This document shows positions 5,820 through 7,754 of a DNA stretch of 64,000 nt, piece after piece; within the stretch, counting starts at the first letter, position 1; every line of letters starts with the position of its first letter. This DNA is from a virus (Duplodnaviria > Caudoviricetes): IMG/VR virus record IMGVR_UViG_3300048854_000073, positions 1,828 to 65,827 of that record. One strand, given 5' to 3'. The notes under the pieces are model-generated. The model had not been told where the DNA came from, did no database searches, and was given only the letters and a program-made list of their open reading frames with translations. A program made the translations under genes and the position numbers.

Positions 5820-6029
5820 TCAATTCTTAACTACACCGCGCAGTGTGCCGCACGCCTCTTTCATGCGGTCGGCCTTCAACTGCAGATCGTCCAATCGCTT
5901 CGCGTTCTCCAGCGAATAAGCTCTGATCTCATCGCGCATCTTCCGCATCCGTTCTTCGCTTCGGAATCCCACAAAAAGGCTTACCATCTGCGCCACCATC
6001 AGGATTGCTATGAGTCTTAGTCGCGCCAC
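5820..6029 (-). CDS. Small membrane-anchored coiled-coil protein
   Basis: Hydrophobic N-terminus followed by heptad-like segment. Confidence 0.5.
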   Translation of the reverse strand: MARLRLIAILMVAQMVSLFVGFRSEERMRKMRDEIRAYSLENAKRLDDLQLKADRMKEACGTLRGVVKN

Positions 6030-6203
6030 GCTTTCCTTCTTTCTTTACTGCAGGTCCGCAGTTCATCGAGCACTGACCGTCTTCCCAACAGTCACCGCAG
6101 GGCGGAATGGATCGAATGCCAAACCGGTAGTTGAAGATCACTTGCCTCCTTAATGGCGGAAGGCCGGAGCCACGTGCCTGTGTACCCCGACCTCCCGACT
6201 TCA

Positions 6204-6276
6204 TTTTTCGAGTGGGAATCGAACCCACTACCCTCTGATCCAAAATCAGATGCTCTACCAAGTGAGCTATCGAGTA
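6204..6276 (-). tRNA. Degenerate tRNA-Gln(UUG)-like element
   Basis: D arm GCTC-ACTTGGTA-GAGC, anticodon stem TCTGA/TCAGA with loop TT-TTG-GA, T arm GTGGG-TTCGATT-CCCAC; acceptor stem has mismatches at 2:71 and 3:70 and no CCA. Confidence 0.65.
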
Positions 6277-6279
6277 AGC

Positions 6280-6552
6280 GGACCTGAGTTGCTTCCACGT
6301 CGCTAACCTGAAGTGTCTTAGCCTGAAAACCGCTGCTCTACCACTGAGCTACCCTGCCATGGATTTTTGGGGGCAGGGACCGGATTCGAACCGGCGACCA
6401 CGGGTTGATTTCACTCCATCAGCTTCGCTTTGCTGTGCCGCAGGTTTGAGCCTGTTTGGGTGATAGCCTGAATGCCCCTGAGAAGGGCAGCGTGAGCCTC
6501 AACCTAAGCCTGAGCCTGAGCCTTGGACAACCTCTTTCGAGGCCACCCAAAT
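6280..6552 (-). ncRNA. Structured ncRNA with hexamer repeats and a circularly permuted tRNA-like domain (6328-6406)
   Basis: 8-bp closing helix 6544-6551/6455-6462, GAAA-tetraloop hairpin, ~13 YTCAGG-like hexamers; order T arm, 3' acceptor strand + CCA, 9-nt linker, 5' acceptor strand, D arm. Confidence 0.8.
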
Positions 6553-6554
6553 TG

Positions 6555-7316
6555 TTAGGCGGGTGACGGCTGGAAGATGTAATCCAGCAACGCTCCGCCA
6601 ATCTTGTTTACAGTAGGATCGATCTCCTCGCCATTGGCGCGAGAACGTGCCCTGCTGACCGCGCGCAGCAAGTCTTCGCCGCGCTCCAGAAACTTCGCCT
6701 TATCCGCAGGAGTAAGCATCGCCGACCACTCCTGCTCCAGAATCACACCAACGCGCTCGTCAACCGTCTCCTTCGCCACCTGCGCGGGATGCTTGTCTGT
6801 CGCCGGGGTGATGGTGATGTACTTGTCCTTCTTCTGCGTGCTGGTCTTCTTTACCTCGCGAGCCACATACACACCCGTCTCGCGCGCTGAATCCTGCGTG
6901 AAGCCCTTCGCCGGATCGAGCGTCGGGATCGTCTTGGCAAACTCCAACATCTCCCGCACGCGCTTCTCAAGCTGCAGCAAAGCGGTAGTCGGAACGTCCT
7001 TTGCAATCGTGGTTCCGTCCTCCGTGATGATGTCTGCTTTGGCGCGCGTGTTGGCCATGTCGATAGCGTAGGCCACATCAATGAATCGCATGGCGATGGG
7101 CTTCAGCCAGTCGATCTCCTTCCGCACCGTCGTCTGAATGTCGCTCTGCTCGCGCGTCTCCGGCAACTGACCTTCCGCGTCCGGGGTGTAGGTCACAATC
7201 TTCATGCCGAACAGATGTTTCTTATTCGCGAAGGTATGTTGCAGATCGGTTCTGCACTTCTCCGCCTGCCCCTTCAGGTTCGATTCGACTGCCAAAAGCT
7301 CATGCAACTTTGCCAT
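6555..7316 (-). CDS. Uncharacterised 253-aa helical-hairpin protein, candidate partner of the downstream ncRNA
   Basis: ATG 7316 after GAGGGG; MAKLHELLAVE...IDMANTRAKADI...LLQLEKRV...ATDKHPAQV...ARSRAN. From memory it resembles a widespread DUF family related to DIP1984/DUF6847 (unverified). Confidence 0.85.
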   Translation of the reverse strand: MAKLHELLAVESNLKGQAEKCRTDLQHTFANKKHLFGMKIVTYTPDAEGQLPETREQSDIQTTVRKEIDWLKPIAMRFIDVAYAIDMANTRAKADIITEDGTTIAKDVPTTALLQLEKRVREMLEFAKTIPTLDPAKGFTQDSARETGVYVAREVKKTSTQKKDKYITITPATDKHPAQVAKETVDERVGVILEQEWSAMLTPADKAKFLERGEDLLRAVSRARSRANGEEIDPTVNKIGGALLDYIFQPSPA

Positions 7317-7352
7317 AGGATTCCCCTCATGCCTCCTTGCGACTGAGAGAAA

Positions 7353-7382
7353 AATATAGCACGCTTGCGCTCTCACTTGCGC
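7353..7382 (-). promoter_or_regulatory. Promoter with extended -10 (TGCTATATT) and two GCGCAAGYG direct repeats
   Basis: Same architecture as the promoter at 12840-12869. Confidence 0.55.
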
Positions 7383-7388
7383 TATCGG

Positions 7389-7754
7389 CTAAACAAAAAT
7401 TTCAGTTTCTCCGAGAATCGATGTAGGCTGCAGCCCTGTCCACTCGCAGACCATCGCAATGTAGTTCTTCGTATCGTTTTCATTGGCCGGAGCGTACTTC
7501 GCAATCGCCTCTGCCACCGTCAACTGGATGTAGGCTGGAGACAACAGCAGCCCCTCCAGTGCCTTGAAGCCGCTGGCAGCATCCGGGAAGATCGCAAACC
7601 TGCCATCGCTCCCTGTCGCTCCATAGCGCTTCGCAAAGCTTCCATATTCGATATTGCCGGGATTGTTGTTCCGCTTCGCACGCGTATTGTCGGAGGCATA
7701 GAAGCCCTCCATCGTGGCAATCGCCTGCGCCAGCGTCTTCCTCCGGCTACTCAA
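7389..7754 (-). CDS. Lysozyme-like protein, putative endolysin
   Basis: IATMEGFY...RNNNPGNIEYG...AKYAPANENDTKNYI, typical of the phage NNPGN lysozyme-like family. Confidence 0.75.
   Translation of the reverse strand: MSSRRKTLAQAIATMEGFYASDNTRAKRNNNPGNIEYGSFAKRYGATGSDGRFAIFPDAASGFKALEGLLLSPAYIQLTVAEAIAKYAPANENDTKNYIAMVCEWTGLQPTSILGETEIFV
7422..7439. promoter_or_regulatory. Partial operator copy (TGTAGGCTGCAGCCCTGT) inside the lysozyme CDS
   Basis: Left half perfect; ~40 bp upstream of the ncRNA-operon promoter. Confidence 0.45.

Follow-up and report, generated by a model that had tools for sequence, protein, structure and literature searches.

A candidate phage non-coding RNA with a permuted tRNA-like core, linked to DUF7873 genes

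The minus strand of a 64,000-nucleotide stretch of viral DNA (Duplodnaviria; Caudoviricetes), hereafter the window, carries at positions 6328-6406 an element in which the 3' half of a transfer RNA (tRNA) stands before the 5' half. The window covers positions 1,828 to 65,827 of the IMG/VR record IMGVR_UViG_3300048854_000073, a phage record of 65.8 kilobases (kb) with terminal repeats. Comparison of homologous loci argues that this element is a genuine RNA shaped like a tRNA with its halves swapped, and not a product of chance or decay. It appears to be the core of an RNA of approximately 350 nucleotides (nt) that is tied to a gene of the DUF7873 family, and not a free-standing gene. Taken as a whole, the element is read here as the tRNA-like core of a YrlA-type phage non-coding RNA that is paired with DUF7873 and processed into a CCA-ended, uncharged tRNA mimic. 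This reading is considered probable, albeit by a modest measure.

A preliminary description of the window had listed the segments of the core, and each of them is present in the order and at the place reported there. In the direction of transcription the core consists of the following parts, with tRNA numbering where it applies; counts refer to 35 unique members of the family, and covariation to the alignment described below.

6406-6400, minus strand: AACCCGT, the P2-side strand, read from the sequence
6400..6403, minus strand: CCGU, the P2 5' strand, equivalent to tRNA positions 40-43; all four pairs change on both sides
6399-6396, minus strand: GGTC, read from the sequence
6379..6395, minus strand: T arm GCCGG/TTCGAAT/CCGGT; five base pairs (bp), four of them covarying; T-loop bases invariant
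6378-6372, minus strand: acceptor 3' strand CCCTGCC; all seven pairs covary
6371, minus strand: discriminator C73
6370-6368, minus strand: CCA, found exactly at positions 74-76 in 27 of the 35 unique members
6367-6359, minus strand: linker AAAATCCAT (AAAAUCCAU in the RNA listing), the proposed leader and trailer lost in maturation; U at -1 is 6359
6352..6358, minus strand: acceptor 5' strand GGCAGGG, a perfect 7-bp partner of the 3' strand; G1 is 6358
6351-6350, minus strand: TA, between the acceptor 5' strand and the D arm
6335..6349, minus strand: D arm GCTC/AGTGGTA/GAGC; 4 bp, all covarying; A14, G18 and G19 invariant
6334, minus strand: A
6333-6328, minus strand: GCGGTT, read from the sequence

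The two ends of the core had been described as paired, with one bulge. The helix itself is borne out by the family, but the bulge is not, as the family register is a bulge-free helix of 4 bp, P2, formed by CCGU (6403-6400) and GCGG (6333-6330). The two extra A-U pairs of the earlier helix are peculiar to the window sequence and lie outside this register. P2 runs on into an outer stem, P1, and has no anticodon loop. Within the window, neither ARAGORN nor the Rfam tRNA model calls the core.

The evidence for a conserved fold comes from 39 viral loci and one locus from a metagenome-assembled genome, all fetched via the DUF7873 protein. In nearly all of these 40 loci, a T-loop motif and, 40-60 nt further on, a D-loop motif are found downstream of the DUF7873 gene. 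An alignment of 21 homologous sequences (A2) came into clean register, and the structure scored in it comprises P2, the T arm, the acceptor stem and the D arm. Standard pairs occupy 99.3% of the paired cells of A2; the figure is 68.7% for shuffles and 35-47% for a slid partner strand. Changes on both sides are seen in 19 of the 20 pairs across the 21 members. The covariation score is 0.836 versus 0.235, and none of 500 shuffles equalled it. RNAalifold returned the same four helices from longer sequences with no structure supplied. U8, A14, G18, G19, T54, the U equivalent to Psi55, C56, A58 and C48 are all invariant in A2, and the tRNA elbow is therefore preserved. The energy of single-sequence folding is uninformative (z = -0.5); the structural evidence is comparative.

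A covariance model derived from A2 (R1) was used to score the loci. The ceiling for false positives is set by ordinary tandem tRNA genes, with R1 scores of up to about 40 bits. Just 3' of the DUF7873 gene and on the same strand, R1 gives 44-105 bits in 39 of the 40 loci.

These data bear on one alternative, namely that the element is a relic devoid of function at the RNA level, left over from a pair of tandem tRNA genes or from a phage attachment site with a tRNA 3' fragment. Tandem tRNA genes do give the same local order of T arm, CCA, spacer and D arm, and two such pairs from a pattern search of viral contigs (L003 and L004) score up to about 40 bits on R1. Decay would, however, hardly be expected to leave acceptor strands that are perfectly complementary in 34 of the 35 members despite their different sequences, nor four helices that all covary. 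The position after the DUF7873 gene is also kept down to approximately 30% protein identity. A relic is thus barely credible, and both an attachment site (attP) and a tandem-tRNA remnant were rejected as contradicted by the covariation.

An independent sample was provided by six phages in culture, with DUF7873 proteins that share 29-41% identity with that of the window. All six carry one or two RNA modules in a gap of 400-700 nt after the gene, with 39-53 bits on R1. The top module of Gordonia phage Phendrix, at 39 bits, lies at the tandem-tRNA ceiling, yet its acceptor helix is intact in the alignment. The hosts of the cultured phages are Gordonia, Rhizobium, Vibrio, Klebsiella, Arthrobacter and Ralstonia, and in four of the six phages the cassette of gene and RNA lies within a tRNA cluster. 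In the six records (MN988525.1, MN096369.1, AB366653.2, OZ195710.1, NC_061418.1 and PQ559666.1), the DUF7873 gene is annotated as "hypothetical protein" throughout, and the 400-700 nt bearing the RNA have either no annotation or tiny predicted open reading frames (ORFs) only.

The RNA around the core is arranged, from 5' to 3', as a hexamer-rich 5' domain, the outer stem P1, P2 with the core, a junction motif, a second module and a 12-bp hairpin. Together with the gene, these parts are located in the window as follows.

6555..7316, minus strand: DUF7873 gene (Pfam PF25283, E 2e-63); the family start gives 253 amino acids (aa), and a longer GTG-initiated ORF extends to 7376
6455..6551, minus strand: 5' domain, with a closing 8-bp helix (6544-6551 with 6455-6462) and a GAAA-capped hairpin at about 6528-6543
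6524-6489, minus strand: six tandem hexamers NAGGCU inside the 5' domain
6412..6423, minus strand: 5' strand of P1, GCUGAUGGAGUG, from the minimum free energy (MFE) fold and a duplex test of own versus foreign flanks
6302..6315, minus strand: 3' strand of P1, CACUUC-AG-GUUAGC, with a 2-nt bulge, from the MFE fold and the same flank test
6316..6333, minus strand: 3' strand of P2 (GCGG, 6333-6330) and junction motif, UUCAGGCUAAGA; the family consensus is GAUYAGRCUMA
6204..6276, minus strand: second module, tRNA-like in conventional order with anticodon UUG, from ARAGORN (tRNA-Gln-like) and the Rfam tRNA model (55 bits)
6158..6196, minus strand: 12-bp hairpin GGGAGGUCGGGG ... CUCCGGCCUUCC that ends the unit; the AAGGAGG ribosome-binding site that follows closely belongs to the next small gene

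The RNA starts 3 nt past the stop codon of the DUF7873 gene. For the 5' domain, RNAalifold recovers the hairpin and the closing helix UYGGG/CCCRA, the latter with a UA-to-CG covariation. Over 35 loci this domain holds AGGCT 69 times where 5 are expected, a 14-fold enrichment, and the junction motif contains the same hexamer (YAGRCU). P1 has no conserved sequence and is too variable to align. In the flank duplex test, 15 of 35 loci, as against an expectation of about one, had their own flank as the best partner; the mean was -18.0 kcal/mol for own versus -11.8 kcal/mol for foreign flanks.

The second module of the window forms five of seven acceptor pairs (the mismatches are A-A and C-A) and has no CCA. 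In nine loci, a tRNA or tRNA-like gene begins 31-38 nt past the core; the anticodons are UUG, UGU, UCU, CAU and GCA, and none of these genes encodes CCA. A bare hairpin resembling an anticodon arm occupies the same place in about 14 of the 35 members under a strict pattern, compared with approximately 10% of control windows. The second module of the nearest relative (L007:3547-3621) has an anticodon loop of 8 nt, and ARAGORN cannot name it. The module of conventional order may no longer decode. In the distant members L044, L045, L053 and L057, the second module is permuted instead of conventional. The 12-bp hairpin is identical in L007, and at the corresponding position relatives carry a GC-rich hairpin that resembles a terminator. 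Behind this hairpin lies an ORF on the minus strand (5929-6141), which has a GTG start at 6141 and an AAGGAGG ribosome-binding site, encodes a cysteine-rich protein of about 70 aa and is conserved in L007.

Besides the DUF7873 gene, no recurring neighbour was seen within 2.5 kb of the related loci. A search of 5900-7600 for sigma-70-like promoters found none, including between the gene and the RNA. Because no other gene recurs and no promoter-like site separates the two, the DUF7873 gene and the RNA are taken to be a two-part cassette, probably made as one transcript.

The close linkage is also what would be expected if the RNA served the messenger in cis, as an element of processing or stability. 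Attracted by the tRNA-like fold, RNase P would cut after the DUF7873 frame, leave a protected, tRNA-like 3' end on the messenger and free the downstream tRNA-like RNA, with no function in trans. The start of the RNA 3 nt past the stop codon, the lack of an intervening promoter, the marks of a pre-tRNA-like junction described below and the fixed distance to a tRNA or tRNA-like gene in the nine loci all agree with this proposal. Simple punctuation, however, needs no conserved hexamer-bearing 5' domain, P1 or junction motif. Three loci (L017, L019 and L024) have another small ORF between the DUF7873 gene and the RNA, and members with a closed acceptor and no CCA retain the rest of the RNA. A purely cis-acting element is thus quite unlikely.

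The protein partner belongs to a family with about 2000 homologues of approximately 253 aa, and with 2256 clusters at 50% identity. Its members are nearly all stand-alone proteins of about 250 aa from viruses and bacteria. A structural model based on a 138-sequence alignment, with a predicted local distance difference test score (pLDDT) of 89 and a predicted template modelling score of 0.80, replaced a model from 26 sequences (pLDDT 71). In this model, long helices form a bundle, and there are two long beta-hairpins. Foldseek found no fold relative of the model in PDB or BFVD, and VIA-align returned only generic helical bundles (best Z 7.7). Nothing was found for DUF7873 in PHROGs, NCBIfam, PADLOC or by a sequence profile against PDB, and the ESM Atlas gave only DUF7873 clusters. 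A full-text literature search for "DUF7873" returned no paper. H5, D80, N89, D95, K162, H176, Q179, K206, R224 and N228 are near-invariant polar residues of the family, and such a set would be in keeping with an enzyme or with a specific binder.

Among described RNAs, YrlA (Y RNA-like A), the tRNA-mimicking Y RNA of Ro60/Rsr from bacteria and mycobacteriophage (Chen et al. 2014), is the closest in design. The preliminary description had already compared the permuted topology with YrlA, and this comparison holds up: YrlA (RF02553) is the only Rfam family other than tRNA whose model is matched from end to end, with 37 bits. This match to a described family falls below the gathering score of 69 bits. 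Six relatives score 32-37 bits on RF02553, and the RNAs adjacent to rsr, the gene of the Ro60 protein Rsr, in related phages also reach only 33-41 bits. The cut-off of 69 bits is therefore too strict for these lineages, and 37 bits alone decides nothing. The RNA itself is absent from Rfam 15 and was not found in the searchable literature.

As in YrlA, the stem formed by the 5' and 3' ends carries the T arm, acceptor stem and D arm, the elbow is kept and there is no anticodon arm. In contrast to YrlA, the RNA of the window is linked to DUF7873 with no rsr gene nearby, has N73-CCA and an A-rich linker in place of the short closing loop, and adds the hexamer-rich 5' domain and the second tRNA-like module. 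To our knowledge, bacterial Y RNAs have so far been known only as partners of Ro60.

It is accordingly necessary to consider that the RNA may be an ordinary YrlA-family Y RNA, which would bind Ro60/Rsr supplied by the host or a co-resident element and act as a gate or tether, for example to polynucleotide phosphorylase, with DUF7873 as a mere neighbour. The full-length match to the YrlA model fits this proposal, and it is helped by the equally low scores of the rsr-adjacent RNAs. Of the 34 module-bearing phages, five have a TROVE (Ro60) gene, and in three cases this gene lies 4-5 kb upstream and on the same strand. No TROVE gene was found, however, in the 65.8-kb phage record or in the other 29 of the 34 relatives. 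The Ro60-binding motif GNCGAAN0-1G is absent from the window, where AGCGAAG comes nearest, and occurs in one of the 35 members against 1.2 expected by chance. The lack of conserved sequence in P1 likewise argues against a Y RNA.

In four of the five TROVE phages, moreover, rsr has a YrlA-like RNA of its own directly upstream, scoring 33-41 bits on RF02553 and 35-40 bits on R1, whereas the DUF7873-linked RNA in the same genomes scores 72-105 bits on R1. Since the scores differ and each of these genomes holds both RNAs, the DUF7873-linked and Rsr-linked classes coexist and are distinct. In the fifth TROVE phage (G026), no YrlA-like RNA was seen near rsr. A Y RNA of the ordinary kind is therefore unlikely. 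On sequence grounds, the RNA is best described as YrlA-like in architecture, while membership of the YrlA family fails on score, on the Ro60 motif expected close to the 5' end, and on the expected location on the same strand as rsr and no more than about 4 kb from it.

The Rsr-linked Y-like RNAs were located in large relatives at G024:C1:59402-59516, G015:C1:36652-36765 and G028:C1:204588-204652 (L047-L049). Their acceptor is closed by a short GCAA or GCAAAU loop and has no CCA. The motif GNCGAAN0-1G is found at the 5' side of two Y-like RNAs, namely L049, upstream of rsr, and L050, which belongs to a tRNA cluster at a distance of about 10 kb from rsr. The latter (L050:80-200; G015:C1:26640-26769) carries the Ro60-type motif as GCCGAAG, a 7-bp acceptor and the loop U-CCA-AU, and ordinary tRNA genes come after it.

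The acceptor end of the DUF7873-linked RNA was surveyed in the 35 unique members. Among the 27 members with CCA, the discriminator is C in 18, U in six and G in three. U stands at -1 in 19 of 27 and A at -2 in 21 of 27. G1-C72 is present in 30 of the 35. Short linkers measure 8-11 nt, and ten of the 19 are exactly 9 nt long; their 170 bases comprise 108 A, 45 U, 16 C and a single G. For comparison, of the 96 genuine tRNA genes called in these loci, 58% have U at -1, 68% have G1 and 70% encode their CCA. As its frequencies of U at -1, G1 and CCA match or exceed these values, the junction of the mimic is at least as pre-tRNA-like as that of real tRNA genes.

A further feature is seen at 6349-6360 on the minus strand of the window, where A at -2, U at -1 and G1 spell AUG. 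Read on through the acceptor strand to the conserved U8-A9-G10, the sequence is AUG-N6-UAG, a two-codon mini reading frame with an A-rich leader ahead of it. It recurs in members that have AU before G1 and UA past the acceptor strand, and it probably arose incidentally, from the constraints set by tRNA and RNase P.

The features on which bacterial ribonuclease P (RNase P) relies are the 12-bp stack of acceptor and T stems, the elbow, U at -1, G1 and the 3' CCA. In the proposed first step, which the preliminary description had already put forward, RNase P would cut between 6359 and 6358, directly before G1, and 3' exonucleases would trim the other piece to A76 of the CCA (6368). The outcome would be a mimic of two base-paired pieces with a free, tRNA-like CCA end. 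The proposal is made because the coaxial stack of 7 + 5 bp, G1-C72, U at -1, N73-CCA and the A-rich, nearly G-free linker resemble a pre-tRNA junction, which makes both cutting and trimming plausible. Such processing is given roughly an even chance.

A precedent exists in Mycobacterium smegmatis, whose YrlA is the only one with a 7-bp acceptor stem; RNase P cleaves it both in vitro and in vivo, and CCA is found at the end of its 5' half (Chen et al. 2014, PMC4201824). The 7-bp acceptor stem is shared by the RNA of the window, as would be the two paired halves, of which one is predicted to end in CCA and the other to start with G1. The two differ in that the CA of the M. smegmatis RNA is added after a demonstrated cleavage and the RNA is bound by Rsr, whereas in the window the CCA is encoded in full, trimming would have to remove a 9-nt trailer and the cleavage is predicted.

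An acceptor end of this kind could also belong to a working split tRNA or to a molecule like transfer-messenger RNA (tmRNA), the pieces of which would be aminoacylated and enter the ribosome. The encoded N73-CCA, G1-C72, the complete elbow and the permuted order, as in two-piece tmRNA, are in keeping with this idea. Two-piece tmRNA of alpha- and beta-proteobacteria and some cyanobacteria indeed has the same succession of T arm, acceptor 3' strand with encoded CCA, removed segment and acceptor 5' strand. In contrast to it, the element of the window lacks G3:U70, a tag reading frame and pseudoknots, and possesses a full D arm. ARAGORN found no tmRNA, and the best Rfam tmRNA model gave 15 bits versus 84.

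The preliminary description had suggested that the RNA might be chargeable and had called C73 His-like, and neither suggestion is supported by the comparison. The 3:70 pair is C-G, G-C or A-U and never G:U in the 21 members, the RNA has no anticodon arm, and U at -1 rules out the G-1 that histidine identity needs together with C73. In addition, the acceptor sequence is different in every member, so that no identity set is shared. An aminoacylated, ribosome-entering molecule is consequently very improbable.

The tRNA genes in permuted order that occur in Cyanidioschyzon merolae, some green algae and Thermofilum resemble the element in that the 3' half comes first and a short linker joins the acceptor ends. 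These genes, however, keep the anticodon arm and mature via a circular intermediate with the help of the tRNA-splicing endonuclease, whereas the element has no anticodon arm and its host is bacterial. A decoding permuted tRNA was rejected, as the core has no anticodon arm and is not called by ARAGORN.

The same pattern search of viral contigs that found L003 and L004, both false positives, yielded two separate oddities. One is an independent permuted tRNA-like element of an unrelated phage (L006:3554-3643, minus strand; IMGVR_UViG_3300032897_000002), which scores 53.7 bits on R1. It consists of a hairpin CUUCC-UUCUAA-GGAAG, whose 6-nt loop contains CUA, followed by AGGUC, a T arm, AUCCCCC, AGCCAUAC, GGGGGAU, UA and a D arm. 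The break falls between the D arm and the anticodon-type hairpin, and no DUF7873 gene is present in the 4-kb piece examined. The other (L005:2550-2900, minus strand; IMGVR_UViG_3300034272_000987) is a cluster of tRNA fragments and T-arm-like hairpins. It contains a match in permuted order at 2657-2751 (45.5 bits on R1), where the acceptor pairs only via G-U wobbles, and again the piece examined has no DUF7873 gene.

In the second step of the proposed mechanism, the RNA would act with DUF7873 in the phage-host traffic that centres on tRNAs, as a tRNA mimic carrying no amino acid. It might serve as a decoy, sponge or platform for enzymes that recognise the elbow, the acceptor end and, in the second module, the anticodon loop. 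Such a role in phage-host tRNA conflict is suggested by the location in tRNA clusters in four of the six cultured phages, by the variable anticodon loop and by an earlier proposal for YrlA; it is rated below processing. According to that proposal, the domain of YrlA that resembles a tRNA possibly acts as a competitive inhibitor of an anticodon nuclease (Hughes et al. 2020, PMC7790460). A ribonucleoprotein of DUF7873 and the RNA that is independent of Ro60, and displays a free, uncharged acceptor end after cleavage as well as an anticodon loop, so as to counter host enzymes attacking tRNA ends or anticodon loops or to be a platform for repair, is put forward tentatively and is rather doubtful.

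Several observations weigh against the reading of the RNA as a processed mimic that acts with DUF7873. The protein is near-neutral (isoelectric point about 6.5-6.9) and has no recognisable RNA-binding fold. The tightly held length of the linker could equally mean an intact loop that is read by a protein, and not a spacer that is removed. Eight of the 35 members have no CCA, and some of them (L041 and L043) extend the acceptor into a long closed hairpin; cleavage is therefore not essential across the whole family. The five module-bearing phages that encode Ro60/TROVE leave a link to this protein possible.

The RNA presents a design like that of Y RNAs, large and well conserved, that travels with a different protein lacking a known fold. 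Its encoded CCA and pre-tRNA-like junction predict cleavage ahead of G1 and a 3' terminus formed by the CCA. It would also fill a gap of 400-700 nt in the annotation of many phage genomes. If RNA and protein act together, they would represent a new RNA-protein system derived from tRNA mimicry, with relevance to host defences that target tRNA.

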